Shown piece by piece: positions 28,425 through 58,823 of a stretch of DNA of 64,000 nt. Numbering within the stretch: the stretch's first letter is position 1; every line of letters starts with the position of its first letter. This DNA comes from an uncultured Chromatiaceae bacterium (lineage in GTDB: Bacteria; Pseudomonadota; Gammaproteobacteria; DRLM01). Under the pieces are notes generated by a model. That model made no database searches. It saw only the letters and a program-made list of their open reading frames with translations, and was not told the DNA's origin. The stretch is taken from positions 230-64,229 of the forward strand of contig CALZJG010000026.1 of the NCBI GenBank assembly GCA_945787555.1, written 5' to 3'. Made by a program: the position numbers and the translations under genes.

Positions 28425-28532
28425 ACCTGACGCCGCCGTTTCCTCGTTCTTCGTTCAGAGCCGATTCAGTCCTAGGCGCGCATATATATAGTGTGCGGCG
28501 GATTTCCCGACTTAAATTCCCAGTTGATTACA

Positions 28533-28557
28533 CTAATGATTATCATTATCATTATCT
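28533..28557 (+). promoter_or_regulatory. Fur box (iron box)
   Basis: TAATGATTATCATTATCATTATC closely matches the Fur consensus GATAATGATAATCATTATC. Lies 40 nt upstream of the Fe(III) ABC substrate-binding gene. Confidence 0.7.
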
Positions 28558-40888: not shown

Positions 40889-42190
40889 TCAAGGCGCGGA
40901 GGCGATGACTTCCAGTTTGCCGACGAAACGGACTAGCGCGAAGCGACGCCCCAGGGTTTTGCTGCGAAAGTCGCGCATCATGATGCCCTCGCTGTAGCGT
41001 ATGCGCGCGCCCACCGCCACGGCGCTGGCTGCGGCCAGCCATTCGCGTCCATCGCCACTGGCTACTTCGAGATAGGTGTAGGTGCCGGCAGGCAGGGCGC
41101 TGAGTACCGTGCCTTCGTGGGGCAATTGCACGGCGGCGGCGGGCGCGGCCGGCGCCGCCGTGATGCCGCTGGGGCCGGCCGGCATCGCGAACTCACCTTG
41201 GTCGGTGATACGGGTGTAGTACACGCTATCGTAGTATCCGTCCTCATTGGTTCCGCCCAAGACATAGAGGTAATCGCCGTGCATCACGGCGCCGAAGTTG
41301 GCCAAGGGCAGGGGCAGTGCGGTGACGGCTCGCCATTGCGTCGCATCGGCGTGCAAATCGAGCGCGTAAACGGCTTTTGCATAATGCGCGCCGCTCAGTC
41401 CGCCCAGAGAGAAGAGTTGGCCGTCGTGCGTCACGGCCGCCAAGCCGTACCGGCCGTCAGGCAGCTCGGGGCCGCGTTGCCAGGTAGATAAGCCACCGGC
41501 GCCGTCGTCACGCGCCCACTCCACCGCGTTGATGCCCGCGCCGCCGCTTTGTTGATGCCCGCCGAGGACGAATACCGTGTCTTGCGTGCGCGTAATGGCG
41601 CTGATGTAGCGCGGCAGGGTCAGGGTTGCAGGTACTAGCTCCCATTCGCCCAGCCGGCCGTCGTCGAGGATGGGCGCGCGTTCCACACTGTCCAGGAGCG
41701 CGCCGCCAAAACCGCCCAGCGCATAGAGATATTCGCCCACCACCACCACTTCGGCGCAGCGACGCGGCAGCTGCAATGGATGGGTCTCGGTTTTCCAGGC
41801 GCCCAGCCGGCCGTCATCGAGGATGGGCGCGCGCTCGACGCTGCGCAGCAGGTTGTGACCATTGGGGCCGTTGCCGCCGCCGACGGCGTAGACATGGTCG
41901 CGATGCGCCGCTACGCCAAAGAAACCGCGTGCTTCGTTGAGCCGGGGGCCGAGGGCCCAGGTCGACAAGCCGCCATCGGCAGACACTGAGGTGTGCTCGC
42001 TATCGAAAAGAAACCGCGTGCCGTCCACACCGCCGATGATGTGTAGCGTCGCGCCGATGACGAGCACGGCGGCGCCGGCGCGCGGGCTGTGCAGCGAGGT
42101 GGCGCTCTGCCAGGCGCTGGCATGGACAAGGCTGGTTGCCATCTGCAATAGGCACGCCGCTAGCCATAGGGCGAATGCGTGGCGCCTCAT
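40889..42190 (-). CDS. Secreted Kelch-repeat beta-propeller protein with C-terminal beta-rich domain
   Basis: Signal peptide MRRHAFALWLAACLL. Repeated GG / Y..GG blades, including a duplicated SVERAPILDDGRLG segment. About 100-aa C-terminal extension of unknown fold. Confidence 0.7.
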   Translation of the reverse strand: MRRHAFALWLAACLLQMATSLVHASAWQSATSLHSPRAGAAVLVIGATLHIIGGVDGTRFLFDSEHTSVSADGGLSTWALGPRLNEARGFFGVAAHRDHVYAVGGGNGPNGHNLLRSVERAPILDDGRLGAWKTETHPLQLPRRCAEVVVVGEYLYALGGFGGALLDSVERAPILDDGRLGEWELVPATLTLPRYISAITRTQDTVFVLGGHQQSGGAGINAVEWARDDGAGGLSTWQRGPELPDGRYGLAAVTHDGQLFSLGGLSGAHYAKAVYALDLHADATQWRAVTALPLPLANFGAVMHGDYLYVLGGTNEDGYYDSVYYTRITDQGEFAMPAGPSGITAAPAAPAAAVQLPHEGTVLSALPAGTYTYLEVASGDGREWLAAASAVAVGARIRYSEGIMMRDFRSKTLGRRFALVRFVGKLEVIASAP

Positions 42191-42330
42191 CGACGGAGGA
42201 CGTGCCAGCCCCGCGCGGCCTGCCTGCTCGCTAATTCTCCCAGGGAGCAAGCAGGGGGTAGATGTGCGGACGATGAGGCCGCGCTGATTGTTGGGCAACG
42301 CGTTGCCCAAGCTTGCTAAGGCAGCGCATG

Positions 42331-44436
42331 TCACAGCGTCACTTCCGTGGCCTGCAGAACGACTGCGAATTCGTCGTGATCGGTGATGGGCGCCGAGCAC
42401 GTGCCGGCGTTGCAGACATAAGCGGTTGCGCTGGCGAGTGGTGGACGTTCCGCCAGCGCAGCGGGTAAATCGTTGGCATCATTGGGGATGGCGCAACTCC
42501 AGCGGCGCGGTGCGTAATGCGCCGCGCAACGCGCTTGCCAGGGGGCGAGTTCGCTGGATTCACCGCGCATGATGATCACCTGCGGCGGATAGAGAATTTC
42601 CTCCAAAGCCACCAGCAAGGCGTCATGAGCATAGGGGAGTTCGGTGATGGAATGCCAAGCGGTGCGCACGGTGCGCTCGGCGGCATCGAGATAGCGGGTC
42701 TCGCCGAGGATGTGACCCAGCCGTCCCAGCACCGTGGCGGCCACCCCGTTGCCGGCGGGCAGTGACTCGTCGGCCAAAGGCTTGGGGCGGTGGATCAAGC
42801 GCTCGTGATCATCGGCGGTAAAGAAGAAACCGCCCTGCTCGCGGTCTTCGAAATGCGCCAGTACCGCATCGGCCAGAGCGATGGCGAAAAGCATGTCCTC
42901 GCTGCGCCAGCGTGCTTGCAGCAGCTCTAGGATGGCGTCGATGAGAAATACATAGTCGTCGAGATAAGCCGCGTAATGCGTCCGCCCGTCCTTGTAAACG
43001 GCTTGCAGACGGCCGTTATGCCACAGCCGGTCACGCACGAAATCCAGCGCCCGCGTTGCGGACATCAGGTAGGTTGCATCGTCCAAGTAGCGGCCGGCGA
43101 CGGCCATGCCTTTGATCATGAGGCCGTTCCAGGCCGGCAGGATTTTTTCGTCACGTCCCGGTGCCGGGCGTTGCAGGCGGGCGGCGTACAGTTTGGCGCG
43201 GGCGCCGTCGATGCGCGGTAATAGCTCGGCGATGTCGCGCGAAAAATCCTGCGACAAGCCGCGCAAACCACGGAACACATGCAAATGCCAGCGATGTTGG
43301 CTGGCGCCGACCTCCGGCTCAAAGTTGGGCGTGCTATCCAGGCCGTAACGACGGGCGAGCAGTGCGTATTCTTCGTCATCGAGCACGGCGCGTGCTTGAT
43401 CCGGTGTCCAAGCGTAATACTTGCCCTCCTCGCCTTCGGAGTCGGCATCCAGTGCGGTGTAATACCCGCCCTCGGGCGCTTGCAGATCGCGTTGTACCCA
43501 GGCGGCGGTCTCCTCGACGATGCGGCGGTAGAGGCCATCATCGGTCAAGCGCCATGCCTGAGCGTAGATGGCCAGTAACGGTCCGTTGTCATAAAGCATT
43601 TTTTCAAAATGCGGGATCATCCATTGCTCGTCGACCGCGTAGCGGAAAAAGCCGCCGCCAAGCTGGTCGTTGATGCCGCCGTCGCCCATTTTGGTGAGGG
43701 TTAGGCGCGCCATGTCCAAGGCAGCGTGGTCGGGCTGTCCGGCAAGTGCGGTGCCGGCGTAATGGCGTAGCAGGCGCTCCAAGTGAGTGGGATGGGGGAA
43801 CTTGGGTGCACCGCCGAAGCCACCGTGCGCGGCGTCGAACTGTTGCGCGAGTTGGCTGCGTGCCCCATCCAGGGGGGCGGCATCCAAAGTCGCGTTTTCG
43901 TTGGGACGGGTTTCATCGAGACGCTGAAACACCGCCAGCAGGCGATCGTTTTGCTGGTCGATGTCGTCGCGATGACGTTCGTAATAGGCCGCGACTTGCT
44001 TGAGTGCGGCGACGAAGGCCGGCAAACCATGGCGGGGGGTTTTGGGGAAATAGGTGCCGCCGAAATACGGAATGTGACTGTCGGGGGCGAGGAACATCGT
44101 CAGCGGCCAGCCGCCGCCGCGTTGCAGTAGTACGTGATGAGCGAGCTGGTAAATCTTATCCAGATCAGGACGTTCTTCGCGATCCACCTTGATGTTGATG
44201 AATAATTCGTTCATTACCGCCGCCGCGTCCTCATCCTCAAAGGACTCGTGGGCCATGACATGGCACCAGTGACATGCGGAATAGCCGATGGACAGCAGAA
44301 TAGGCTTGTCTTCCTCGCGCGCGCGCGTCAGCGCCTCAGGTCCCCACGGGTACCAGTCCACGGGATTGTGGGCGTGTTGGAGCAGGTAGGGGCTGGTTTC
44401 CTGCGCGAGGCGATTGCAGTGCTGCGAGAGGTCCAT
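42331..44436 (-). CDS. Thioredoxin-domain protein YyaL/DUF255 (thioredoxin fused to six-hairpin glycosidase-like domain)
   Basis: [38 protein letters not shown] is the DUF255 thioredoxin-like signature. 701 aa. Confidence 0.8.
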
Positions 44437-44537
44437 GGGGTACCGACGGCGGCGGGGTATCAGGGTGTACTGGCCAGTATAGATCAGCACACCCGGCGCT
44501 GTCTGCCGCGCGTCTTGTAAGTATGATGGCGCGCTGT

Positions 44538-45494
44538 TTACAGAGAGGGCAGAAAGTCGATGGGCCAGACGAAGACCACCTGATCGACGTCTTTGGCGCC
44601 GAAATCGAATAGCCGGATGCGTGCCACCAGTTTGCGCAGCAAACCTTCGTCAGCCAGCTCGGAAGAGAGTACCTTGCATTCGCTCACCGAGCCGCTGGGC
44701 GTGATGGTGATTTCCAAGGTTACTTTGCCTTGCAGGGTGGGGTTTTTGCGTACGGCGCGCTGGTAGAGGGCGTTGAGCGCGCCACGGTTGCGGTCCAGCA
44801 CCAGTTGAATTTGCTCATGACTGCGACCGGTCTTGCGTTCGACGCGTTTTTTCTGCTCCTGTTGGGTAAGTACGGCGCTTTCCACCACTGTAGTGTCGCG
44901 GCTGGCCATGACCGTGCGTTCGCCGGTATCGCGCGCCAGGTCGGAGGTATTGATGCCGCCGCTCCCCTGTGTGGCGGTGGAGGTGATGATGGAGCGTCTG
45001 GAGCTTTCCGCGCCGCCCTGGGTGAGCGGGGTGCCGCCCAGCAAGTCGCCGAGGTTATTTTGCCGCAGCGCGGCCAATTCATCCCGCATGGCCAGTAGGC
45101 CGGTCTTGGCCGCTTTGTCGCGCGCGGCTTGTACATCGGGCTTGAGCTCGACCTTGGGTGCCGGCTTGGGCTCGGGTTTGGGTTCCGGTTTAGGCTCCTC
45201 GGGCTGGGGTTCCGGCTCAGGCTCAGGTTCGGGCTCAGGTTCGGGTTTCTTTTCCTCTGCCGGCAGAGGCGGCGGGGGTTTGGGTTTTTCCTTTTCCAGC
45301 ACCAATTTGGCGAGGCGCGGTGGCACGCGTTCGGCCTCGCTGCGGTCGATCTCGGGGACTTTGAGCCACGGCAGCACGCCGCCGACGATAATGAAAACTA
45401 GCAACGCGACCAGCGTAATGCGACGAAAACGCCGCTCTTCGGCCAGGGTAGGGCTCCAGGGTAACTCCGATGAGTGATAGTAACGGCCTACCAC
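44538..45494 (-). CDS. tonB: TonB-family energy transducer
   Basis: N-terminal TM anchor, Pro/Glu/Lys-rich spacer ([27 protein letters not shown]) and C-terminal TonB domain. Confidence 0.75.
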
Positions 45495-45497
45495 ACC

Positions 45498-46001
45498 TCA
45501 GCCCTCCGTCTGATGCTTTTTCATGACCGCCAAGGACAGATTGGTGTAGTTCGCCTTGGTGGAGGTGATCATGATTTTCTTCAGCAGCAGATAGGGAATC
45601 TGCCGGTCGCCCATAATGGTCAGTTCGCCGGGAGGCGCGTCGGGCCCGCCCGTGAGGCGCCCGGCTTTCTCGGCTTGATAAGTCAGTTCCGCCAGTAATT
45701 CGGGAATGATGTCGGCTTCGTGCCCGACCGCGTCCGGCACCGAGATGACTTTGCGGCCCGCCACGAGAATGTCCTGATTGTTGACCAGCACTACCAAGGT
45801 TTCCTTGGGCGTTTTCTCTGCCGTGGATTCGGGCAGCTTGAGCGCCTTGGTGCTGGGGACTTGCTGCACGCTGGAGGAGTTGACCAGTAGAAAGAACACC
45901 AGGATGGTGAAGATGTCCATCAGTGAAACCAGGTTGATGGAGGCCATGCGCTTACGCTTGTGATGGCGCTGCATGCGCTTGGCGCGACGCGACATCTTCA
46001 T
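45498..46001 (-). CDS. exbD: ExbD/TolR-family protein (copy 2)
   Basis: Single N-terminal TM plus periplasmic ExbD fold (INLVSLMDIFTILVFFLL). Start overlaps the upstream exbD stop by 4 nt. Confidence 0.8.
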   Translation of the reverse strand: MKMSRRAKRMQRHHKRKRMASINLVSLMDIFTILVFFLLVNSSSVQQVPSTKALKLPESTAEKTPKETLVVLVNNQDILVAGRKVISVPDAVGHEADIIPELLAELTYQAEKAGRLTGGPDAPPGELTIMGDRQIPYLLLKKIMITSTKANYTNLSLAVMKKHQTEG

Positions 46002-46501
46002 GGCGGGCTCCCCGCCGCGGAGGGTGCATCGCCGATCGATAATTCCGGGAACAGTTCGGCCTGGACCATGTTGCCCGCTTGCACAACATTCACGGTGCGG
46101 GTGGCATCCATCACCGCGATGAGAATTTCATAAGGCGTGTCCTGCTCGGCCATGATGGTGGCGTCGAGTTTGTCGGGAAAACGCGTCTTGACTTGGGTGA
46201 GGGTCTCGGACAATGCCTTGTAGTCGTAACGATCACCGTCGTTGTTTACGCGTCGAATCAATCCGCCGCGTCGGTCCGCCACCTCCAGCGCATCTTTGCG
46301 GATGATGATTTCCAGCTGCAATTCTTCATCGGGGTTCTCGCTGTTTTCCACTGCCGGAGGAATATTGAGTTCGAGAACGCCGATGTGCGAGAACACCGCG
46401 GTGATGAGCAGGAATGGCACCAGTATCACCATCAAATTCATGAAGGCGGTAATGTCCAGCTCTGGCGGCGCGGGGCGGCGATGATGGAAGCGACCTCTCA
46501 T
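45998..46501 (-). CDS. exbD: ExbD/TolR-family protein (copy 1)
   Basis: ITAFMNLMVILVPFLLI TM helix. 167 aa. Confidence 0.8.
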   Translation of the reverse strand: MRGRFHHRRPAPPELDITAFMNLMVILVPFLLITAVFSHIGVLELNIPPAVENSENPDEELQLEIIIRKDALEVADRRGGLIRRVNNDGDRYDYKALSETLTQVKTRFPDKLDATIMAEQDTPYEILIAVMDATRTVNVVQAGNMVQAELFPELSIGDAPSAAGSPP

Positions 46502-46508
46502 CCTTAGA

Positions 46509-47153
46509 TTACCCGTTGTTCTTCTGTTCTTCTCCGATCATATTCAGAAACTTTACTGCCGCCATTTCCAGGCTATCCACCAATTCGGTGGTCTTGGTTT
46601 GCAGATAGGAGTAGAGCAAGAGTAACGGTATGGCGACCATCAGTCCCAATGCGGTGGTGTTCATGGCCACGGAAATACTTTGCGATAATAGCTCGGCTTT
46701 TTGAGCCGGATCAGCGGCGGCCACCGCGGTGAAGGCTTGGATCAGGCCGATGATGGTGCCCAGCAAGCCCAGCAGCGTGGCGATATTGGCGAAGGTGGCC
46801 AGGTAATGGGTGCGCTTTTCCAGGCGCGGCACCATTTCCATTAGGCCTTCTTCCATGGCCACTTCGATGTCATCGCGGCGTTTCATGGATTTCAGGCGGG
46901 ATAAGCCATAGGCGAGAATCTTGCCCACGGCGGCTCTTGAGTCGGCGGCCGTGGTCATCGCATCCTGATACTTGCCCGCTTGGATGAGCGGCATCAGCGT
47001 ATCCCACACTTTGACATTGGCGCTCTTGGTGCTGGATAGATACAGAAAGCGCTCCATGGCGATGGCCAGTCCCAGAGCCAATACGATCATGATGGGGTAG
47101 ATGAAAACCCCGCCTTCCTGAAGAAACCGCACGATGGTGTGATAGGTTTCCAT
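46509..47153 (-). CDS. exbB: MotA/TolQ/ExbB proton-channel protein
   Basis: 3-TM topology. Conserved TolQ/ExbB C-terminal helices (ATLLGLLGTIIGLIQAF, MNTTALGLMVAIP). Confidence 0.8.
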   Translation of the reverse strand: METYHTIVRFLQEGGVFIYPIMIVLALGLAIAMERFLYLSSTKSANVKVWDTLMPLIQAGKYQDAMTTAADSRAAVGKILAYGLSRLKSMKRRDDIEVAMEEGLMEMVPRLEKRTHYLATFANIATLLGLLGTIIGLIQAFTAVAAADPAQKAELLSQSISVAMNTTALGLMVAIPLLLLYSYLQTKTTELVDSLEMAAVKFLNMIGEEQKNNG

Positions 47154-47275
47154 CCTTCTCTCCTCGTTGACGTGCTAACGGTTGATGGTTGGTCGCGCCC
47201 GCCGTAGTGACGCCGGGCGCGGCGTGTGGATTGTCCTTGGTAACGGCTTCATCGACTGTTTTCTTGACTGTCAGC

Positions 47276-47548
47276 TCAGCGACTGTCACTTTCGGTGACG
47301 AGGCCTCGTAGCTCCAATTCGCGCTTCATTACGTCACGGTCGATGGGCGTCAAGGGGGGCTGCGCGCGTGGTGTGAGCACCCACTCGGGTAATTCCGCCG
47401 GCACATCACGCCACGGCACGATAAAGGTGACGCGCGGTTGCTCCGCATTGCCGACGATGGTGGTGACGTCCAATTGCACTTTGTCGTCCTCACTGTACGC
47501 CGCGGCGGCGACGAGCATGAATGTGAAACCCGCGAGAGTGTACTTCAT
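47276..47548 (-). CDS. Small secreted protein of the TonB-cluster (unknown function)
   Basis: 90 aa with signal peptide. 4-nt overlap with the upstream TPR lipoprotein gene. Confidence 0.45.
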   Translation of the reverse strand: MKYTLAGFTFMLVAAAAYSEDDKVQLDVTTIVGNAEQPRVTFIVPWRDVPAELPEWVLTPRAQPPLTPIDRDVMKRELELRGLVTESDSR

Positions 47549-48183
47549 TGTGCGGCCTCCTGTTGCAATAAACGATGTTTCACGTCGGCCAACCAGCCGG
47601 CCAGGCGGCCGTCGTCGTGGGTGGTGTACTGCTGGTAGCGCTCATAGTGCTGTAGCGCATTCTTTAAGTCGCCGAGATACAAGTCATACAGTATCGCCAA
47701 GTTGAGATGTGCGTAGGCGTGATCGGGCTTGGCATGGATGGATTGCTCATAAGCCTGTCGCGCTTCCTTGAAGCGGCCGTGATGGCGATGCACGATGCCC
47801 AGGTAATTGAGCGCGGCATAGTCCTGTTGGTTAAGCGCCACGGCCTGACGCAAGTAATTTTCCGCTTCATCAAGCTTGCCTTGACGGTAATAGATCATGC
47901 CCAGATTAGTACGGGGGCTGGCCAGCGACGGGTGCGCAGTACACAATTCCAAGAATAACTGTTCCGCGCGCTGGTCATCGCCGGCGTGCAAGGCGGCAAT
48001 GGCTAGTGCGAAATCGCGCTTGAGTATGGGGTCGATAGTCTCTAGCGCCGGGGTTTCGGCGGCGGGCGGCGGTTCCACCGGCGCGACCTGCGCGGGTTCG
48101 ATAGGCGGCTTGGGCGCGGGGGCGCCGCAGCCGCTCAGGGCGACGATCAAACTTAGGGTAAGCGTGCGGTCAATAAATCGCAT
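47545..48183 (-). CDS. TPR-repeat lipoprotein
   Basis: Lipobox LSGC, Pro-rich linker, then about 4 TPR units. 212 aa. Confidence 0.7.
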   Translation of the reverse strand: MRFIDRTLTLSLIVALSGCGAPAPKPPIEPAQVAPVEPPPAAETPALETIDPILKRDFALAIAALHAGDDQRAEQLFLELCTAHPSLASPRTNLGMIYYRQGKLDEAENYLRQAVALNQQDYAALNYLGIVHRHHGRFKEARQAYEQSIHAKPDHAYAHLNLAILYDLYLGDLKNALQHYERYQQYTTHDDGRLAGWLADVKHRLLQQEAAQ

Positions 48184-51100
48184 CGATGTACAACTCGCCT
48201 TGTTCCTGTTTGCCGTAGCGCGCTGGCATCAACTTGCTCAGCGCCGCGTAACTCTTCTGCACCCATTCGTCGTAGAGATTTTGCTTGGCGGTCCGTTGCG
48301 CATTCGATTCGTGCAGTGCGATGGCCTGCTCCTCGAAGGGGTAAGCTTGCTCCTCGAGCAGAATATCGTATTGCTCCAACTCTAACTCGTTGAGTCCCTT
48401 GGGGCGTTCGGAGTTCATTAGATCCGTGCTGAAGTCGCCATAAATTTGCGCGATGCGGTAGGTGGCGGCAGTGGTGATGTCGCCGATGCCGTACTCGGCC
48501 GCTCGTTTATAGGCCGCCAGCGAGGCTTCCATTTTAGTCTTTTTCACCTTCAGACTCTTGTTCAGCGGATGGGTTAGCGTGGCGTCCTTGAACTCCGCCA
48601 GCCCCGCCTCGGCCAGGGTAAAGGTGGCATGGGCGGCAAGATAGCGGGTGCGCTCGGTGCGTGCCGCGCCGCCGCGTTGATCGGCGTCGATAATGCGTTG
48701 CAGCCATGAATGTTGCTTAGTGGTGGCGGTTTGTTGTGCATAAAGTTCGGCTATGCGTTGCATACCTTCCACGGCTTCTTGCAGCGGCGCGGGGTAGCGC
48801 GACACATAGTCCGTGAATACCCGTATTGCGTCGTCGCGGCGTTCGGCGCGTACGTACATTTCAGCGGATTGCCAAATGGCGTCGCGGCGTAGCTCCTCGC
48901 TTTCGCCATGCTCGGCGAGGCGCTCCAATTCGGTGGCGGCCTTGCGCCAATCGCCGATCTCTTGATAAGCCAGCGCCAGCTTGGTGTCCACGTTTCTTTG
49001 CAGTTCGTGGTTGGGGTAATCTTTGCGGAAGCGCTCCAGTGCTTTGATGGCGGCGGGAGTGTCCTGCAAGGTTAGCAAGGCGGTGGCGGCGTCGAAATCG
49101 GCGCTGGGCCGCGCGCTCGATTCGGGCACGATCTTGCCGAGGCGCTGAAAATGCGCGACGGCGTTGCTCAGGTCGCCGGCGTCTCGTGCGGTCTCGGCTT
49201 GTTTGTAGATCGCCGCCGCCAGGCGTTCACGCATTGCGGGGCGTGCGGCGTCGCCCTTGGCCGTTAATTGCAGCGCTTCACTGTAAGCGCTTTCAGATTC
49301 TTCATAACGCGCCGTGTCGAAGCGGCCGTGGGCGAGTATGGTCCAGGCATTGCGGCGCAAAGCCGGCTCCGCCGGCGGGTCGATGGTGAGTACGCGCTGC
49401 GCCAGGCTCTCGGCCAGCGCCAAGTCTTTGGAGGCAAACCGTTCCTGTGCGGCATTGGTGAGCGTGGCCGCGATGCGTGGGTCCTGGGGGTAGGTGTGTG
49501 CAAAGCGTTCCGTCGCCGTCAAGGCGCGTTGCCGCCATTGCGCCGATTCAGCGTCGCTCAGTTGCGATTCCAATTTGCGATAAGTCAATAACGCAGCATA
49601 GCCGGCTTCCGCGCCTTTCTCGTGCGTGGCGTACTCATAGGCAGTGTGTTCATAGGCTTCGATGGCCTCAGGATAGCGGCCGGTCTCGTAGAGCAGTTCG
49701 GCGAGCAAGAAATGCGTCTCAGGCGCGCTGGCATCTTGTGGGAAGGCGTTGAGCAATAAGCGATACCAACGCTCGGTGGCGCGGTAATCGGCCGGTTGTT
49801 TGCTCTTTTGCGCCTTGGCGTGGGCATACTGCGCCAATTCATGCAATTGGCTGTTGACCTGAGCGAGCAGGGTTGCGCGATCCTGAGATGCGGGCGCCGT
49901 CTTCCAGTAGTCGCTGCCGGGTTCATATTGCGTGACGAAAGCTTGCTTGGCGTCGATCAGCAAATCGGCGAAGCCGCCTTGTTGGTAGGCGGTCATCACG
50001 CGTGTTTGGAACTCCGGCGCACGCGGGTGCGTGGGGCGACGCGCGACGAAGGCTTGATAGGTGGCGGCGGCATCTTGGATGCGCTCCTGGCTCATATACA
50101 ACTCGGCCAGCGCAGCATAGAGACGGTCTTCGTATTTGCGTGGCCCCACGCGTTCGATGTAACGCGCGATGGATTGTGCTCCGTTGATCTGTGACAGGCC
50201 CAGGCTGGAAACGCGCAGCACGTCGTTGAGCAACTCTTCATCACCGGCGGTGGGGACGGCATCGGTATGCTCCAGTTTACGGTCCAGCAGTTTCATGAAC
50301 GACTCCAGCGCCGTTGCGTAATTGCCGAGACGGTACATCGACCAGCCGTGTTTGTACTGGGCTTTTTCAAAATAGGGTGAGGACGGCCCCATCACCACCA
50401 CCGTGCCGTAGGCCGCGGCGGCTTGATCGGGCACTCCCAACGCGAATAGCAGTTCGCCGCGGCGGAATTGCACTTCGTCGCTGAGGACGCTGGTGGGAAA
50501 CTCGAGCGCCAGGCGTTCCAAGGTGTCGAGCAAGCCGACGGTATCACCGCTGTGATCATAGGCCTTGGCGAGTTGATACAGCACGCGGTCGTTGTCCGGC
50601 TGGTCCGAATAGGATGTCAAGAGCTCCTGATAGCGGGTGATGGCCGCTTCGTACAGCGATTCCGCTTCCTTGACGAGGGTGCGTCCTTCGCCTTCCAGCT
50701 TGCCCACGAGTTGACTGTACTGTGCGTCGGCCTGGGTCATTTCCAGATGCGCGAGGCGCAACAGCGCGGCGCGCCGATGTGGGCTCAGGGGGGCGAACTC
50801 GGCATAGTCGCGATAGGCGACGATAGTGTCCTTGTAGTCATCCTGGCCGGTATCGCTTGCGAGACGATCCAAGCTTTGGGCGAGCCCGAGTCGCGCATCG
50901 GCGAGGTAGGCCTTGAGGGCGCTGCGTTGCGTAGCGAGGGTCTGGCGTAATTGCGCCTCGAGGTAGCGGCGTTGTTCGCCCAGCAAAGTTTCGGTGCGTT
51001 GCGTTAGCTCACGTCGGCGTTGCGCCATCTGCTCGAGGTCTTGATCGTTAGTAACAATGCCGACGGCGGCCAACTCCGCACTCTTATGCAGCATGGCTTG

Positions 51101-52696
51101 GCTGCGACCGGCGCGTGCCAGGGTCTTGTCTAAGTCGATGAAGGCTTTCTTGGTGTCCCACAAGCGCTGTGGATAGACCTGCACCAAGTCCCAGATCATC
51201 AAGCCGCGCAGCAGGCGGTATTTGTCCTGCAATTCATCGACCGCGATCAGGCCTTGCAGACGATTGAGGCTGTCCTGCACGCGTTGTAAGCCGCTCAATA
51301 ATTTCTGTTCGTTGTCCTTGGCCAGCGGCGAGGGATCGCCGGTGATCTCCACCCGCCTCAGTTCGTCTCGAAGCTGCTGCGCGGCAGCTTCGGGCTTGCT
51401 GACGTCGAACTGCTTGCTTTGCTCTAAGGAGCTCGGCAGGCGCTGCCAATGGGCGTCGCGGCGCAAGTCCAGCAGATTCTGAAAGGCGTGCAGGTCATGC
51501 TTCCAGTTACTTAGTTGGTCGTGCAAATAGCGTAGATCGCGATAATGCTTCAGGCCTTCCTGAAAGGGGTGGCTGGCGAGCAAGGGAATGAGATAGGTGA
51601 TGGCGGGATGTTGGGGGGCAGTGGCGGGGCGCCAATACCAATTCACTTCCATTCCAGGCTCGTCGCGCAACAAACGATCCAGTAAACCGTGCTCGATGGC
51701 TTGCACCGCAGCCAAGTCTAAAGCACCTGCCTCATGGTCGTAAGCGGCAATGGCGCGTTGATAGAGTTCGGCGGCTTTGCCCGCTTCCCCTAACTCATAG
51801 TGCGCGCGCGCCAGGCCCAAATACGCCTCGTGTCCGGCCGGCTCATGGGCGGGCGCTTGCGCCAGTGGCGACCAGCTCTCCATAGCGGCGCGGTAATTCC
51901 GTTGTTTATAGGCCGTCCAGCCCAGCCCCAGGCGAGCTTGATCGCGTAGTGGGCCTGCACTGTCGATGCGTTTTAGCGCCTTACGTGCGTGGTCGTTGGC
52001 ATCGAGTTGTAGATAAATGTGGCCCAAGGCCAGATTGATGCGATCCTGCAGGGCTTGCACCGCGCTGTGGGTCGATGGGGTAGATGCCAGTTGTTCGAAC
52101 AGGGTGAGCGCCTCATTGCTGCGCTTGGTTTGCGCCAAGCCGATGGCCAGGTTGTAACGGCCATAGGCGCTCAGTTCGCTTTGACCCTGCAGCCCGCGCA
52201 ACGCGGCCACGGCTTCGCGATCACGGTCGCGCGCGAGCAGTACGAGCCCCAACAAATAGTCACGCTCAGTCTGACTGCGGCCGGGCGCTACGTCGGTAAG
52301 ACGTGAGAGGGTCTCCTCGGCTTGCGGCAGATGGCCACGTTGATAAAACATTTGTGCCAAATTGAGCCATGCTCGATCTGGCAAGGTCCGTTGCATGTGC
52401 AGTTGATTGAGCGCCAGGCCGGCTTGATCCGGTAGGCCGTAACCCAAGTACAAGCCGGCTTGGGTGAGAGCGAGGTCGGCCGCACGTTCCGCTGGCGCTG
52501 ACTCGCTCAACCGACCCAACAGGGTCAAGCCGGAAAAATATTTTTGTTGCAGCGCCTGGTAGGTCGCTTCCTTAAAGTGTAGATCCCACGCCGCCGCGCT
52601 CAACTCAGCGCTGTGCGCGGCCGTCCCCCAGCTCAAGGCGGCGGCCAGCACTAAGGCGCTCGTGCGGCGTATAGTGGTCACCATCGACGTGGTCAT
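48170..52696 (-). CDS. Giant periplasmic TPR-repeat protein (1508 aa)
   Basis: Signal peptide followed by dozens of TPR-like helical repeats along the whole length. 14-nt overlap with the downstream TPR lipoprotein gene. Confidence 0.75.
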   Translation of the reverse strand: MTTSMVTTIRRTSALVLAAALSWGTAAHSAELSAAAWDLHFKEATYQALQQKYFSGLTLLGRLSESAPAERAADLALTQAGLYLGYGLPDQAGLALNQLHMQRTLPDRAWLNLAQMFYQRGHLPQAEETLSRLTDVAPGRSQTERDYLLGLVLLARDRDREAVAALRGLQGQSELSAYGRYNLAIGLAQTKRSNEALTLFEQLASTPSTHSAVQALQDRINLALGHIYLQLDANDHARKALKRIDSAGPLRDQARLGLGWTAYKQRNYRAAMESWSPLAQAPAHEPAGHEAYLGLARAHYELGEAGKAAELYQRAIAAYDHEAGALDLAAVQAIEHGLLDRLLRDEPGMEVNWYWRPATAPQHPAITYLIPLLASHPFQEGLKHYRDLRYLHDQLSNWKHDLHAFQNLLDLRRDAHWQRLPSSLEQSKQFDVSKPEAAAQQLRDELRRVEITGDPSPLAKDNEQKLLSGLQRVQDSLNRLQGLIAVDELQDKYRLLRGLMIWDLVQVYPQRLWDTKKAFIDLDKTLARAGRSQAMLHKSAELAAVGIVTNDQDLEQMAQRRRELTQRTETLLGEQRRYLEAQLRQTLATQRSALKAYLADARLGLAQSLDRLASDTGQDDYKDTIVAYRDYAEFAPLSPHRRAALLRLAHLEMTQADAQYSQLVGKLEGEGRTLVKEAESLYEAAITRYQELLTSYSDQPDNDRVLYQLAKAYDHSGDTVGLLDTLERLALEFPTSVLSDEVQFRRGELLFALGVPDQAAAAYGTVVVMGPSSPYFEKAQYKHGWSMYRLGNYATALESFMKLLDRKLEHTDAVPTAGDEELLNDVLRVSSLGLSQINGAQSIARYIERVGPRKYEDRLYAALAELYMSQERIQDAAATYQAFVARRPTHPRAPEFQTRVMTAYQQGGFADLLIDAKQAFVTQYEPGSDYWKTAPASQDRATLLAQVNSQLHELAQYAHAKAQKSKQPADYRATERWYRLLLNAFPQDASAPETHFLLAELLYETGRYPEAIEAYEHTAYEYATHEKGAEAGYAALLTYRKLESQLSDAESAQWRQRALTATERFAHTYPQDPRIAATLTNAAQERFASKDLALAESLAQRVLTIDPPAEPALRRNAWTILAHGRFDTARYEESESAYSEALQLTAKGDAARPAMRERLAAAIYKQAETARDAGDLSNAVAHFQRLGKIVPESSARPSADFDAATALLTLQDTPAAIKALERFRKDYPNHELQRNVDTKLALAYQEIGDWRKAATELERLAEHGESEELRRDAIWQSAEMYVRAERRDDAIRVFTDYVSRYPAPLQEAVEGMQRIAELYAQQTATTKQHSWLQRIIDADQRGGAARTERTRYLAAHATFTLAEAGLAEFKDATLTHPLNKSLKVKKTKMEASLAAYKRAAEYGIGDITTAATYRIAQIYGDFSTDLMNSERPKGLNELELEQYDILLEEQAYPFEEQAIALHESNAQRTAKQNLYDEWVQKSYAALSKLMPARYGKQEQGELYIDAIY

Positions 52697-52708
52697 GACA
52701 TGCAGGGT

Positions 52709-53257
52709 CTACTCAACTTCTCGAATGGCGATGTTGGGCAGTTCTTGGTTCGAGCCGCTGAGTTTGAGCTCGATGAGTTTTGCAGTCAGGTCTTTTTCGA
52801 AGTCGCCGCTGGCGCTGACTTGGTGTTTCTTGCCTTTGCCATCCTTGCCTAAGAGGGTGGCGGTCACGCGGTGCGGTCCTACGGCGAGATTGCCCAGGTA
52901 TAGCCGCTGCACACCGCCGCGCCGCAGCGCCTCTTGTTCACGGGCGGTATAGAGGTAGTTGGTGACGACTCGCTCATCGAGTTTGAGCTGTATGCTGTCT
53001 AGACCTGCCTCGCCTTGTAGGGAGAGAAACACGACGATTTGAGTCGAGGAGGGCGTCAGCAGTTGCGCCTGCAAGCGTGACAAATCCTTGCTCAGATCCA
53101 GTACGTCTTGTTTGAGATTGATGACGCGGTCTTCCAGACTGCGGAAATTCGGGTCCGGTGTGAGCGAAAAGCGCTCGGGAATATTGCCTTGCAGATCGGC
53201 GCCGGCCGCACACAAGGGTGCTAGGCTCAGCAGGATAGCGAGGAGAGATATCTTCAC
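52709..53257 (-). CDS. Secreted protein of unknown function (cluster-associated)
   Basis: Probable GTG start giving VKISLLAILLSLAPLCAAGA, a signal peptide. Coiled-coil segment DVLDLSKDLSRLQAQLL. The ORF could extend to 53314. Confidence 0.45.
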   Translation of the reverse strand: MKISLLAILLSLAPLCAAGADLQGNIPERFSLTPDPNFRSLEDRVINLKQDVLDLSKDLSRLQAQLLTPSSTQIVVFLSLQGEAGLDSIQLKLDERVVTNYLYTAREQEALRRGGVQRLYLGNLAVGPHRVTATLLGKDGKGKKHQVSASGDFEKDLTAKLIELKLSGSNQELPNIAIREVE

Positions 53258-53382
53258 AAGTGCACCCCACAAATGTTCCTTGCCGTGGCCTCCTTGGGCA
53301 CGGCCAATGCTCAATAGCGATGCCCCTCAGGGCCGGGTCGGTATGTTGCTCAGCGGCGCAGGAAACTGGCAGTCTTGCTGGT

Positions 53383-53964
53383 TCACTGCCACTCCTTCAG
53401 CAACTCGCGTACTTCCGTGTCATACAAAATATCGTCCGTGTCACGATAACCCCGATGGATGTATCGCTGCTTGCCATCTTTATCGACCACCACACTGGTG
53501 GGCATGAGCGTTGCCAGGTAGAGCGGCGCCAAGCGGTTATGCGTGTCCAGGAGCAGCGGGAAGCTGACCTGCAATGCGAGTGCCGTCGAGGCCGCTTCAT
53601 CAGCGGCGACGTCCGAGGCAATCACCAGTACCCGCAGGCCTTGCTCGCGATAGTGCTGGTACAACGCCTCCCAGCGCTCCAGTTCGCGTAGGCATTCACG
53701 GCAGCGGGTTTTCCAGAACACCACCGCCACGACATGTCCGCGGTATTCGCTGAGGCGCAGGTTGTCGCCGGCATGGCTCTTGAGTGTGAAGTCCGCCGCC
53801 GGTTGATTCAGCATGGGATCCAGCGCTTCGGCCGTGGACGAGAGCGGGGGCCAGCTCAACGTGGCGTAGAGAACGGCGGTCACCACAAAACGCCAGCGCC
53901 GGGCCAAGTCCCGTGCTGCACGTGTAGGGGCGCTAGGCGCAGTAAGGCGTCCTGCCGGTGACAT
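53383..53964 (-). CDS. TlpA/ResA-like thiol:disulfide oxidoreductase (redoxin), membrane-anchored
   Basis: N-terminal TM anchor. Thioredoxin fold with VVFWKTRCRECLRE (CxxC). Confidence 0.65.
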   Translation of the reverse strand: MSPAGRLTAPSAPTRAARDLARRWRFVVTAVLYATLSWPPLSSTAEALDPMLNQPAADFTLKSHAGDNLRLSEYRGHVVAVVFWKTRCRECLRELERWEALYQHYREQGLRVLVIASDVAADEAASTALALQVSFPLLLDTHNRLAPLYLATLMPTSVVVDKDGKQRYIHRGYRDTDDILYDTEVRELLKEWQ

Positions 53965-54156
53965 CGTGTCTCGAATATAATTCCACCGCGCTACGCGCGC
54001 GGAAGGCTGCATTTCCTGAAATACGGTGGGTGCACAGCGTAACTGGCCGTAAACCGGGAAGTAGAATATCACAAAGGGCGGGGGCGGTAAGCCCGTGTGA
54101 AGCGTCGGTGTTGGGTAGGCTGGCCGACCGTTGCTAAGGGGTGCCTAGAAACGAGA

Positions 54157-56269: not shown

Positions 56270-58579
56270 TCAGCCCGCCGAGGCCTCAGCGGCGGCCTTG
56301 CGCACTTTGATACGCGTGGCCGTGCCTTGTTCCTCGATGCTCAGCACTTGGTGTCCGTCACTTTGCAGGCTGGAAGTCACTTGCTGCGAGGGGTCGCCCG
56401 AGACGAACAGGAAATCCACCTCCGTGCCGGGTTGCAAGCTGCGCAGCGTATTGCGCGCCTTGATGTAATGCAGCGGACAGCCATAGCCGGTGAGATCGAT
56501 GATAGACGCGCTCGTCTGCGCCAGCGCCGGGCGTTTGATTTGCGGCAATGAGGCGGTCAGGTCGAGTTGCTTATCGATGCCCTGGCAGGTGGCAGCGGCG
56601 TCCAGCATCCACGCGTCCATGCGCTCGGACAACGCCTTGAGCTTTAGATCTTCGAAGTTGGCTTGCTGCTCGGCCAGCTCCGTAATGAACTGTTGCAGAC
56701 GTCCGCCCAAGTCGCTGCTGGGCAGGGTCTCGCTCAGGTCGCTGGCAATGTCCGCCAAGGTTTGGCCGGCCTGACGGCCGGCAAGGAATTGCACCGACTG
56801 GCCGATCGCACGCAGCATTTGTTCGGCGCACTCGATGGCGTTTTCCGGGTCACGTTGCAAGCGGAAGGCGTCGCGATAGTTGCGCTCGTGGGCGGCCTCG
56901 GCGAAGTTGGCAGACACCAGGCTCTGCGCCGCGCCGGCGCATTCGCCGCCGCCCAATTGCAGCACTTTGAATTGCTCGGCTTCGCCGTGGTCGCGCCCCA
57001 CTTCAGCGAGCTGCTCGGGCGTGATGCCCTTCAGATCGGCGACGACCGAGGCGATGTGCTCGATGCCCCGTCGGCGGGTCCAATGGAAGAAGCTTTCATC
57101 GTCCTGGTGGTCCTGGCCATACGCCTCGCTCACGCGGCTGACGGCTTGCTCGATGCGCGCCGCCGGGATGGAGGGGCCTTTGAGGGCGATGGCGCCGTCG
57201 CCACGACCGTCACCGCCGAAATACATCTGATAATGCGGCACCAGCTTGCCGTGTAAGCGTTTGCCTTCACCGTAGATGCCGATATCGCCGGTCTCGGGCT
57301 GGGCGCAGCCGTTCTGACACCCGCTGGCGCGGATGCGCAAATCCTGCGGGCCGCCGGAGAGTTTCAGGCCGACGATCTTGGATGAGGTGATGCCGAGGCG
57401 GCAGGTGGACGTGCCGGGGCAGGCCACCACGTTGTCGCCGACCTTGGGCTCGCCCAGATCGAGGGCGGCCAGGGCGGCGCGGATGCGCGGAAAGCTATCC
57501 TCGCGCACGCCCACCAACGCCAGTTTTTGATCCTGCGTGGCGCGCACGTCGTCCAGTCCTTCGCTCTGCATCAGTTGGGCGATGCCGCGTAGCTGCGGCG
57601 CGGTAATGTCGCCGATGGGCAGGCTGATGGGGAAGACGTGCAGTCCCGGCTGTTTTTGCTCGATCACGCGGCGCGGCGCGCCGGGGAAGGGAGTAGCGCC
57701 GTCGCGCTGGCCGGCTTGCCACTCGCCCTTGGGGTTATCGTAATCGGCGTAGGCCACCTTGGTGCGCGCCAGCTCCTCGCGATATTTAGCGATGAATTCC
57801 TCGGCGCCGAATTTGTCGACCAGCCATTTGATGCGGGCGCGGGCGCGCCGTTTGCGGTCGGAGTACTTGTTGTGCAAGGTCAGGATCGCTTCCATGGAGG
57901 CGAGCAAGTCTTGCTCCTCGATAAATTCCTCGACGGTGATGGCATGATGGGGCTTGTGGCCCAGGCCGCCGCCCGCCAGTACCTTGAAGCCGAAGCGGCC
58001 ATCCTTGTTGACGGCGACTACGCCCAGGTCATGCATCAATCCTTGGGCGCAATCGGTTTCGCAGCCGGAGAAGCTGATCTTGAACTTACGCGGCATTTGC
58101 TGGGTCAGGGGGTAGCGTAAGAAGCGCTTCACGGCGCCTTCCAAATGCGTGTTGATGTCGACATGCTCGCGCGGGCACACGCCGGCTAGCGGGCAGGCGC
58201 TGACGTTGCGCACGGTGTTGTTGCACGCTTCGCGGGTGGTGAGGCCGGCCTCGCCCAGTTTGCGCATCACCGTGGCGGTGTCCTTGATCGGGATATAGTG
58301 GATTTGGAAGTCCTGGCGCGTGGTGACATGAGCCACGTCGTGCTGGGCGTAAGTCTCTAAGCAATCGGCGATAACGGCGAGTTGCTCGGGATTCATGATG
58401 CCGCCCGGCAGTTTGATGCGTACCATATGCACGCCATCTTGGCGCTGGCCGTAGATGCCATGCTGGAGGCGGAACGACATGAAGCGCTCGCCGTCCATAT
58501 CACCGTTCAAGAAAGCGTGTACCGCTTCTTCGTAACGGTTGATCTCTTCCACGTCCACCAGATTCTTGATCACACTCAT
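56270..58579 (-). CDS. Siroheme-[4Fe-4S] sulfite/nitrite reductase (NirA/Sir type) fused to C-terminal TusA-like domain
   Basis: Two nitrite/sulfite-reductase ferredoxin-like halves with siroheme-cluster cysteines (ACPGTSTC...SGCQNGC). Then an about 140-aa linker domain and a C-terminal TusA motif (IDLTGYGCPLHYIKARNTLRSLQPGTEV). ATG 58579. Confidence 0.8.
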   Translation of the reverse strand: MSVIKNLVDVEEINRYEEAVHAFLNGDMDGERFMSFRLQHGIYGQRQDGVHMVRIKLPGGIMNPEQLAVIADCLETYAQHDVAHVTTRQDFQIHYIPIKDTATVMRKLGEAGLTTREACNNTVRNVSACPLAGVCPREHVDINTHLEGAVKRFLRYPLTQQMPRKFKISFSGCETDCAQGLMHDLGVVAVNKDGRFGFKVLAGGGLGHKPHHAITVEEFIEEQDLLASMEAILTLHNKYSDRKRRARARIKWLVDKFGAEEFIAKYREELARTKVAYADYDNPKGEWQAGQRDGATPFPGAPRRVIEQKQPGLHVFPISLPIGDITAPQLRGIAQLMQSEGLDDVRATQDQKLALVGVREDSFPRIRAALAALDLGEPKVGDNVVACPGTSTCRLGITSSKIVGLKLSGGPQDLRIRASGCQNGCAQPETGDIGIYGEGKRLHGKLVPHYQMYFGGDGRGDGAIALKGPSIPAARIEQAVSRVSEAYGQDHQDDESFFHWTRRRGIEHIASVVADLKGITPEQLAEVGRDHGEAEQFKVLQLGGGECAGAAQSLVSANFAEAAHERNYRDAFRLQRDPENAIECAEQMLRAIGQSVQFLAGRQAGQTLADIASDLSETLPSSDLGGRLQQFITELAEQQANFEDLKLKALSERMDAWMLDAAATCQGIDKQLDLTASLPQIKRPALAQTSASIIDLTGYGCPLHYIKARNTLRSLQPGTEVDFLFVSGDPSQQVTSSLQSDGHQVLSIEEQGTATRIKVRKAAAEASAG

Positions 58580-58823
58580 CCTCGCCTCTCTCGCGCCGGC
58601 GCTGCGCCGACGATCTATCAAAATTTAGATGCTCCGATAACCTGAGCGTCGTTACGTGCGCCGCAACTGCCTGGCGCCATGCCCCACCCGAAAAACCCAA
58701 GGCGCCATATTTTACATGACCGCGGGCATGACCGCGCAATACTCAGTCCGCCACCGAAATGTATCGATCACGGCCCCGGGGGACGCTGCAGCAGCGCTAC
58801 GAGGTCGCGAAGGACGGGCTGTT

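Follow-up and report, generated by a model that had tools for sequence, protein, structure and literature searches.

A probable stand-alone Agl-Glt core complex with a predicted GltC-GltD fusion in an uncultured Chromatiaceae bacterium

We analysed a window of 64,000 nt from the genome of an uncultured Chromatiaceae bacterium (assembly GCA_945787555.1, contig CALZJG010000026.1, positions 230–64,229, forward strand). Nine co-directional open reading frames (ORFs) occupy the minus strand between positions 44538 and 54072, as seen from their coordinates and translations. In order, they encode a redoxin, a 183-aa secreted protein, a 1508-aa tetratricopeptide repeat (TPR) protein, a 212-aa TPR lipoprotein, a 90-aa secreted protein, an ExbB-like channel subunit, two ExbD-like proteins and a TonB-like transducer. 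The locus probably belongs to the Agl-Glt 'core complex' family, as one of its stand-alone members. This family is the ancestral module of the gliding (Agl-Glt) and spore-coat (Agl-Nfs) machines of Myxococcus. The cluster is real, strongly conserved and belongs to a system known since 2011. Four aspects are new: a fusion of GltC and GltD, a conserved and unannotated 183-aa partner, an Asn/Asp pair of TolR-like proteins and the frequent ApbE/DUF3570 neighbours of related clusters.

An earlier reading of the sequence (the original prediction) had listed nine minus-strand genes of these families, and the ORFs and the Pfam and NCBIfam assignments agree with it. It had regarded the module as unrecognised. 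That view does not hold; the gene set and gene order are those of the core complex described by Luciano et al. (2011).

The gene cluster resembles the Agl-Glt core complex

Among the gliding genes of Myxococcus, Luciano et al. (2011; PMC3169522) distinguished recent from ancient ones, the latter being gltC, gltD, gltE, gltG, aglR, aglQ and aglS. Together with one extra small gene, these ancient genes form a single cluster in Gammaproteobacteria, one Betaproteobacterium and Geobacter. The cluster was named the 'core complex', with no function assigned, and Wartel et al. (2013) termed it a possible 'basal transport machinery'. The gene order is gltC-gltD-gltE-small gene-aglR-aglQ-aglS-gltG. Genomes in Table S3 of the 2011 study are those of Thioalkalivibrio, Marinobacter, Hahella, Saccharophagus, Teredinibacter, Cellvibrio and Shewanella. 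The sizes given there are 321–535 aa for GltG, 162–185 for AglS, 168–188 for AglQ, 205–272 for AglR, 162–263 for GltE, 922–1016 for GltD and 550–692 for GltC. A locus tag is skipped between AglR and GltE.

Listed in the order of Table S3, the proteins of the window are 318, 167, 167, 214, 90, 212 and 1508 aa in length, and 1508 aa is close to GltD plus GltC. One TolQ-like gene is followed by two distinct TolR-like genes (one PF01618 and two PF02472 matches). Beside this motor lies a GltG-type transducer, with a transmembrane helix, a Pro-rich linker and an AgmX/PglI-type C-terminal domain. Upstream of the gltE position, residues ~640–1508 of the large protein correspond to a GltD-like TPR part (~920–1020 aa), and its N-terminal 630 residues correspond to the GltC-like part (~550–690 aa) that precedes gltD. 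The small TPR lipoprotein and the extra small gene are represented by the 212-aa and 90-aa proteins.

Some observations weigh against the assignment. The link to Myxococcus GltC, GltD, GltE and AglRQS is made through published tables of related genomes, synteny and the GltG-domain model. Cut-offs of the full-length GltG (37–40 against 650) and GltE (33.6 against 225) equivalog models are not reached. For GltG this is expected, because the cytoplasmic FHA domains are absent. One TolR-like paralogue lacks the membrane Asp, unlike AglQ and AglS, and the motor may therefore work differently. In addition, searches of the open-access literature turned up no functional experiment on this complex in organisms other than Myxococcales and Bdellovibrio, and the window encodes no integral outer-membrane component.

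The cluster is conserved in Gamma- and Betaproteobacteria

Species-representative genomes, one per species, were scanned with the GltD motifs LELEQY.. and LLEEQAYP. This gave at least 572 confirmed loci. Counts below refer to the best 80 of these, of which 61 and 64 have enough downstream and upstream sequence, respectively; related loci are cited by L numbers. Among the loci listed, carriers belong to Chromatiales, Woeseiaceae, Thiodiazotropha/Sedimenticolaceae, Acidiferrobacterales, Ectothiorhodospiraceae and Lentisalinibacter, and to Aquabacterium, Methylibium and Caldimonas of the Burkholderiales. The closest are metagenome-assembled genomes of uncultured Gammaproteobacteria or Chromatiaceae. 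In an exhaustive profile search, the GltD family comprised 3,229 representative clusters at E ≤ 1e-30.

The shared order is 183-aa gene, GltC, GltD, GltE-like, 90-aa gene, AglR-like, two TolR-like and GltG-like. Conservation of the neighbourhood had been put forward as a check in the original prediction. The motor and GltG-like genes follow in 55 of the 61 loci with downstream room, which represent several gamma- and betaproteobacterial orders. Such an arrangement is far beyond chance.

Scaffold-only clusters, without the motor and GltG-like genes, were also seen (L001:8355-15774 from Sinimarinibacterium flocculans, L016, L019, L077 and L081). The order in Sinimarinibacterium is GltC, GltD, GltE, a 93-aa gene and a gene for a 546-aa protein that has no Pfam family and weakly matches the 183-aa protein. 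Beyond the 546-aa gene, at a distance of 2 kb, is a redoxin-DUF4266-DUF3570-ApbE module. Separately, two small outer-membrane beta-barrel proteins (OMP_b-brl), one with an SH3 domain, are encoded upstream of the redoxin-DUF3570 genes that adjoin the cluster in ~13 Burkholderiales-type loci (for instance L007:3914-5362 and L074:3704-4906). The pair is absent from the window, and its products are possible outer-membrane partners in the Burkholderiales-type lineage.

The 1508-aa protein is a predicted GltC-GltD fusion

The 1508-aa TPR protein (48170–52696, minus strand) carries one signal peptide, of type I (AHS/AE), at the N-terminus of its GltC-like half. This half spans residues ~1–630 (50801–52696) and aligns with separate upstream genes of relatives. 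The GltD-like half, residues ~640–1508 (48170–50800), is a TPR_6/YbgF-BamD-type solenoid that ends in the invariant motif LELEQYxxLLEEQAYPFEE. Five partial stretches together give it a TIGR02795 score of 118.7 bits.

Homologues of the protein fall into two classes. Those of ~1540–1580 aa cover it fully and those of 949–953 aa cover only the C-terminal 55–57%. The GltD-like half is 34–52% identical to proteins of 922–1016 aa encoded at the same genomic position. Separate genes for proteins of 549–685 aa, located before the gltD-like genes, align with the GltC-like half (25–34% identity, up to 281 bits). For example, a 549-aa gene precedes a 949-aa gene in Sinimarinibacterium and matches the N-terminal third of the 1508-aa protein. 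Across the 80 loci, relatives have separate genes of ~620 and ~940 aa, usually overlapping by 4 nt, and GltC and GltD are fused only in the four closest relatives and one metagenome contig. Loci with the fused form share a phosphoribulokinase neighbour. Similarly, the best 150 GltD relatives are nearly all 925–990 aa long, with about nine fused forms of ~1500 aa. The N-termini of separate GltD homologues are of the lipoprotein type, and the fused form has lost this feature. By these alignments, the 1508-aa protein is a clade-specific fusion of GltC and GltD. A further ~13 of the best 150 GltD relatives measure 1056–1294 aa and have a C-terminal extension; their lengths would fit additional GltD-GltE fusions.

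The 1508-aa length had earlier been taken as the mark of an unusual scaffold. It reflects instead a clade-limited fusion of two ordinary components. Membership of a characterised family, such as BcsC, PgaA or a PEP-CTERM PrsT lipoprotein, had been named as an outcome that would count against the original prediction. None of these three applies; the PrsT model scores 43.9 against 312, and there is no BcsC or PgaA match. GltC and GltD are nonetheless a named family, so in spirit the objection stands.

Other loci contain other fusions. The 183-aa protein is joined to GltC at L010:306-2453 and L019:7680-9821, and GltD is joined to GltE at L080:9683-13021. The independent 183-aa-GltC, GltC-GltD and GltD-GltE fusions argue for one physical complex. 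In the AlphaFold model of the Myxococcus complex, the C-terminal helix of GltC touches the N-terminal helix of GltD. The C-terminal end of GltD carries GltE, and its N-terminal end carries the C-terminal domain of GltG. The predicted geometry of the window's fusion fits the modelled GltC-GltD contact.

The 212-aa protein (47545–48183, minus strand) matches TPR families and has the lipobox LSGC. The residue at +2 is Gly and the lipoprotein is therefore probably anchored in the outer membrane. Matches to the GltE, Tgl and PilW models are weak and the GltE equivalog score is 33.6 bits, below the cut-off of 225. Hence, the GltE-like assignment rests on position and family. Of the 80 loci, 74 have the gene, and at least 59 of these 74 encode a lipobox.

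The motor has two non-equivalent TolR-like subunits

The AglR-like protein (214 aa; 46509–47153, minus strand) is a MotA/TolQ/ExbB-family proton-channel subunit (PF01618, 105 bits). Among the equivalog models, TolQ comes closest, with 70.5 bits where 221 are required, and ExbB scores 44.3 against 206. Since both cut-offs are missed, the protein is neither TolQ nor ExbB proper. It is 57–76% identical in relatives, and the more than 8000 close homologues carry the generic label 'MotA/TolQ/ExbB'. The ExbB homologue search led to none of the genomes named by Luciano et al.

Paralogue 1 of the TolR/ExbD family (45998–46501, minus strand) occupies the AglQ position and paralogue 2 (45498–46001, minus strand) the AglS position. 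Both are 167 aa long and match PF02472 (65.8 and 55.6 bits, respectively). The ExbD_2 and TolR equivalog scores are 24.4 bits against 123 and 24.9 against 127. In paralogue 1, encoded beside the channel gene, Asn22 replaces the membrane Asp that is essential in TolR and ExbD, and Asn is found in 63 of 64 members. Paralogue 2 has the canonical residue, Asp29, and Asp is found in all 62 of 62 members. This asymmetry implies that the motor would have a single protonatable site. According to reviews, Myxococcus AglQ and AglS both carry the membrane Asp.

The GltG-like protein (318 aa; 44538–45494, minus strand) is a TonB/TolA-like transducer. It has a short cytoplasmic N-terminus of ~25 residues, one transmembrane helix, a linker rich in Pro, Glu and Lys, and no FHA domains. 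Its C-terminal domain matches NF033768, the AgmX/PglI C-terminal domain, with 62.5–65.9 bits at a cut-off of 40. The C-terminus of the GltG model is next best (E 1.6e-9). The tonB_Cterm model (28.5–30.7 bits, cut-off 27.1) is the sole Ton model passed; Pfam TonB_C scores 20.6 against 24.6, the TonB equivalog 32.8 against 265 and TolA 29 against 59. All 60 of 60 related GltG-like C-terminal domains pass the AgmX/PglI model. In the PDB, the sequences of the TonB-like protein and the two ExbD paralogues brought up nothing better than a marginal TonB match (E 0.0035). Judged by these scores, 'TonB/ExbB/ExbD' is the label of a superfamily and not of a family.

Two small secreted proteins accompany the scaffold

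The 183-aa protein ('p201'; 52709–53260, minus strand) starts at a GTG at 53260, which gives ~183 aa; the maximal ORF is 201 aa (52709–53314). Besides a signal peptide, it contains a single long helix and a TssJ/transthyretin/Ig-like beta-sandwich. Its gene is the first of the cluster in 63 of the 64 loci with upstream room. Neither this protein nor the 90-aa protein has a Pfam family.

The 90-aa protein (47276–47548, minus strand) has a signal peptide and no NCBIfam family. The gene is present in 69 of 80 loci, at the position of gltF in Myxococcus and of the 'additional gene' of the core complex. Soon after the signal peptide, the family consensus contains a conserved segment, T-x-I-x-G-N-x-E-L-P-K-V-L-Y-I-V-P-W. 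An AlphaFold2 model from the single sequence, with no alignment, was of low confidence (pLDDT 55). GltF has been reported to be TonB-box-like and, in the published model, extends the β-sheet of the GltG domain by a strand. By eye, the conserved segment resembles a TonB box, and we infer that the 90-aa protein may be a GltF analogue.

Organisation of the transcription unit and surrounding genes

The genes had been described as linked by overlaps of 4–14 nt. This is accurate at three junctions: 14 nt between the 1508-aa and 212-aa genes, 4 nt between the 212-aa and 90-aa genes and 4 nt between the two ExbD-like genes. It does not apply at three short gaps, of 12 nt (183-aa and 1508-aa genes), 7 nt (ExbB- and ExbD-like genes) and 3 nt (ExbD- and TonB-like genes), nor at two larger spacers. 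The redoxin and 183-aa genes are separated by at least 68 nt, probably ~122 nt. The 90-aa and exbB-like genes are separated by 122 nt (47154–47275; the median in relatives is 84 nt). This second spacer holds a GC-rich hairpin (about 47223–47192) and a strong GAGGAG ribosome-binding site before the AglR-like gene. Its fold is indistinguishable from that of shuffled sequences (z = −1.57), and the locus has no Rfam match. The spacer may separate expression of the scaffold from that of the motor.

A strong terminator-like hairpin (54191–54156, minus strand), with a 16-bp stem, 11 GC pairs and a T-rich tail, lies 3' of the upstream phosphoribulokinase gene. The unit therefore starts past this hairpin. 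A σ70 scan found no promoter before the cluster. Directly downstream of the cluster is a gene for a DUF255/YyaL thioredoxin-domain protein (42331–44490, minus strand), with a promoter-like site at 44505–44476, and after it a gene for a Kelch-repeat protein (40889–42400, minus strand). On the other side, near the phosphoribulokinase gene and adjoining a gene for a LysR regulator, a 783-aa protein is encoded (56270–58621, minus strand). It has nitrite/sulfite-reductase ferredoxin-like and 4Fe-4S domains and a C-terminal TusA sulfurtransferase domain. This gene and phosphoribulokinase suggest a sulfur-oxidising autotroph.

Alternative explanations for the cluster

The locus could be a second Tol-Pal-like system, outside the Tol-Pal family itself, in which a TolQRA-like motor works with CpoB/YbgF-like TPR partners to keep the outer membrane tethered or to serve constriction or lipid homeostasis. 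Among the equivalog models, TolQ and TolR fit the motor proteins best, and TolA_full matches the transducer linker. The YbgF/BamD-type TPR_6 repeats of the GltD part, with their TIGR02795 sum, and the probable outer-membrane location of the TPR lipoprotein fit the same idea, as does the TssJ/transthyretin-like sandwich of the 183-aa protein, a fold typical of periplasmic envelope adaptors. However, the TolQ, TolR and TolA cut-offs are missed (70.5 against 221, 24.9 against 127 and 29 against 59), and the TIGR02795 score arises from repeated partial matches rather than from a CpoB architecture. No TolB, Pal or YbgC is encoded in or near the cluster, and Luciano et al. (PMC3169522) place such genes in an AglRQS/Glt clade apart from Tol/Exb. 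We consider a Tol-like device unlikely. The original prediction had likewise set Tol-Pal aside, and both the missing TolB and Pal genes, in the cluster and its neighbours, and the missed Tol cut-offs bear this out.

A second alternative concerns the redoxin (53383–53964, minus strand), a TlpA/ResA-like periplasmic thiol:disulfide oxidoreductase. The maximal ORF is 53383–54072 and the likely start is an ATG at 53964. The protein has a signal or anchor segment, matches Pfam AhpC-TSA (72 bits) and Redoxin (50 bits), and has the active-site motif C-R-E-C. Of 56 related loci, 28 have a redoxin gene no more than 7 kb upstream, which in 16 is directly adjacent. The nearest relatives lack it, and have a PAP2 gene or nothing at its position. 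The redoxin is thus a facultative neighbour and not a core component. In relatives, it belongs to a module of thioredoxin-like, DUF4266, DUF3570 and ApbE genes, which Meheust et al. (2021; PMC8238504) recognised as a flavinylation module with no assigned function. Among the 80 loci, 45 have an ApbE gene beside the cluster, in one of at least three placements: upstream of the redoxin and 183-aa genes, with DUF3570, or 4 nt past the GltG-like gene. Examples are L021:16283-17278, L027:5392-6489, L052:4701-6917 and L008:6221-7336 (among L005-L084).

On this evidence, the motor and scaffold might serve to assemble, place or gate an envelope redox module of the thioredoxin-like/flavinylated type (DUF3570, ApbE), with the CxxC redoxin as its local remnant. 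The recurrence of ApbE in several arrangements and of the TlpA-like redoxin in half of the scored loci speaks for this possibility, as do the recognised status of the four-gene module and the DUF255 thioredoxin-domain gene just downstream of the cluster. Against it, the 64-kb window contains no ApbE, DUF3570 or DUF4266, the nearest relatives have no redoxin, and a search of the core proteins found no conserved [ST]GA[ST] flavinylation motif and no conserved cysteine pairs. Adjacency could also be, in part, synteny inherited within lineages. A role in handling such a redox module is therefore improbable. Redox coupling through the CxxC protein, as proposed in the original prediction, is weak at this locus, but the protein does stand as a recurrent neighbour. 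There is also only a slim chance that the ancestral core is a proton motive force (PMF)-driven, envelope-spanning device coupled to redox and flavoprotein biogenesis outside the cytoplasm. It would then place or energise the thioredoxin-like/DUF3570/ApbE module at the outer membrane of sulfur-oxidising and related Proteobacteria, with the redoxin-headed operon as its minimal version. In a related possibility, the Asn/Asp pair of TolR-like proteins would make a mechanistically distinct 5:2 motor with a single proton site.

The cluster might, alternatively, be a genuine Ton system that serves receptors encoded elsewhere in the genome, with the TPR genes as unrelated passengers. The superfamilies fit (MotA_ExbB, two ExbD and a Pro-rich protein) and the tonB_Cterm model is passed, at 28.5 against 27.1. 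Ton energisers are often unlinked to their receptors, and Xanthomonas has two exbD copies. Conversely, the C-terminal domain fits AgmX/PglI far better than TonB models, the ExbB, ExbD and TonB equivalog cut-offs are missed 4–8 fold, and one ExbD paralogue lacks the essential Asp. Nor are the TPR genes passengers; their order with the motor is kept in 55 of 61 loci. No TonB-dependent receptor is apparent within 64 kb, since scanned ORFs of at least 200 aa gave no Plug or TonB_dep_Rec match. The only scanned flanking ORFs of more than 600 aa encode an ABC-F ATPase, the DUF255 protein, the sulfite-reductase-like protein and topoisomerase I. Fur-box matches occur only at 28532–28556 and not at the cluster. 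There, 40 nt before an FbpA-like solute-binding gene (28597–29652) and the permease gene that follows it (29680–31251), are two overlapping near-consensus boxes with two to three mismatches; by chance, none would be expected. Thus the original prediction was right that the cluster is not a siderophore-type Ton system, that no TonB-dependent receptor accompanies it and that Fur-regulated FbpAB is the sole iron link. A Ton system for distant receptors is very unlikely, and the motor most likely energises an envelope process other than receptor uptake.

A gliding or surface-translocation apparatus like Agl-Glt is the least credible alternative: the cluster is homologous to the core of that machine, but the core is insufficient for motility and most carriers are non-gliding (Luciano et al., 2011; PMC3169522), and the Myxococcus-specific additions are absent, with no counterpart of GltA/B/H/K/F, GltI, GltJ, an adhesin or the GltG FHA domains in the cluster and scanned neighbours (the GltJ model matches the window only through the shared C-terminal domain). 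The Ton and gliding explanations are hence unlikely, and the Tol-like and redox-linked ones remain as descriptions of function.

A model for the core complex

Work on Myxococcus informs a model of the core complex in the window. Cambillau and Mignot modelled the motor as AglR5-AglQ-AglS, and Luciano et al. (PMC3169522) found that AglR and GltG interact in a two-hybrid assay. Myxococcus work also indicates PMF dependence and describes GltD as a pillar that binds the C-terminal domain of GltG, GltE and GltC. These contacts are carried over here by analogy. What the sequences themselves show is the set of genes and their order, how widely they are conserved, the types of domain, the signal and lipoprotein segments, the GltC-GltD fusion and the Asn/Asp difference between the paralogues.

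The inner-membrane motor would be of the 5:2 type, with an AglR-like pentamer around a heterodimer of the two TolR-like paralogues. As only one paralogue keeps a protonatable Asp, the PMF would be converted through that subunit into movement of the GltG-like transducer. The Pro-rich linker would span the periplasm and allow the AgmX/PglI-type domain to dock on a periplasmic scaffold. We envisage this scaffold as the GltC-GltD fusion together with the outer membrane-tethered GltE-like lipoprotein and the 183-aa and 90-aa proteins. The TonB-box-like strand of the 90-aa protein, as in the putative GltF analogue, might be the ligand of the GltG-like domain. Such a chain of motor, transducer and scaffold would therefore carry force across the periplasm, from the inner membrane to the periplasmic side of the outer membrane, with no TonB-dependent receptor being fed. 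The output may be a 'basal transport' or tethering activity.

The role of the ancestor of the gliding and spore-coat machines, in bacteria that neither glide nor sporulate, has been a standing question since 2011. The system is abundant: the GltD family numbers 3,229 representative clusters, and species-representative genomes hold at least 572 loci, with sediment and symbiotic sulfur-oxidisers prominent among the carriers. The constraints gained here are three independent fusions that map contacts in the scaffold, a near-universal 183-aa component, a motor with one protonatable TolR-type subunit and the recurrence of ApbE, DUF3570 and thioredoxin-like genes as genomic neighbours. They bear on membership and contacts, not on cargo. 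In practice, they offer better annotation, free of TonB/ExbB/ExbD labels, and sharper hypotheses for genetics.

Comparison with known systems

With ExbB-ExbD-TonB, the cluster shares a MotA/ExbB channel, ExbD partners, an anchored Pro-rich protein, a TonB-like C-terminal fold and, presumably, PMF drive. It differs in having two non-equivalent ExbD paralogues, an AgmX/PglI-type domain and an obligatory linkage to the TPR scaffold. Compared with Tol-Pal and CpoB, the TolQ/TolR-like motor, the TolA-like extended linker and a YbgF-type TPR_6 partner are common to both, whereas the TPR partners in the window are 10-fold larger and lipoprotein-tethered, and TolB, Pal and YbgC are missing. In the case of the flavinylation module (PMC8238504), a TlpA-like CxxC protein lies beside the window's cluster, and the module, or ApbE alone, is adjacent in relatives; the window itself holds the redoxin only.

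The likeness to Agl-Glt and Agl-Nfs is closer. Both sides have a TolQ-like channel paired with two distinct TolR-like proteins, and in both the C-terminal domain of the TonB-like transducer is of the AgmX/PglI type. The GltC/GltD/GltE TPR scaffold and a small secreted protein after gltE (GltF or the 90-aa protein) are shared as well. Unlike Agl-Glt, the window has no GltA/B/H/K barrels, GltI, GltJ or CglB/CglD adhesins. The transducer in the window has ~25 cytoplasmic residues, whereas Myxococcus GltG has two FHA domains. Paralogue 1 has Asn in place of the membrane Asp, and the genes form one cluster rather than the three of Myxococcus.

The closest match is the core complex itself (PMC3169522), as in Thioalkalivibrio (Tgr7_0536-0543) and Marinobacter (Maqu_1595-1602). 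Gene set and order are alike and sizes are near-equal; the small gene between gltE and aglR, the single cluster and the kind of host also agree. In the window, by contrast, GltC and GltD are fused and the GltD part lacks a lipoprotein signal of its own, the gltC part is preceded by the 183-aa gene, which is not in the tables of that study, and the whole cluster is headed by a redoxin gene.

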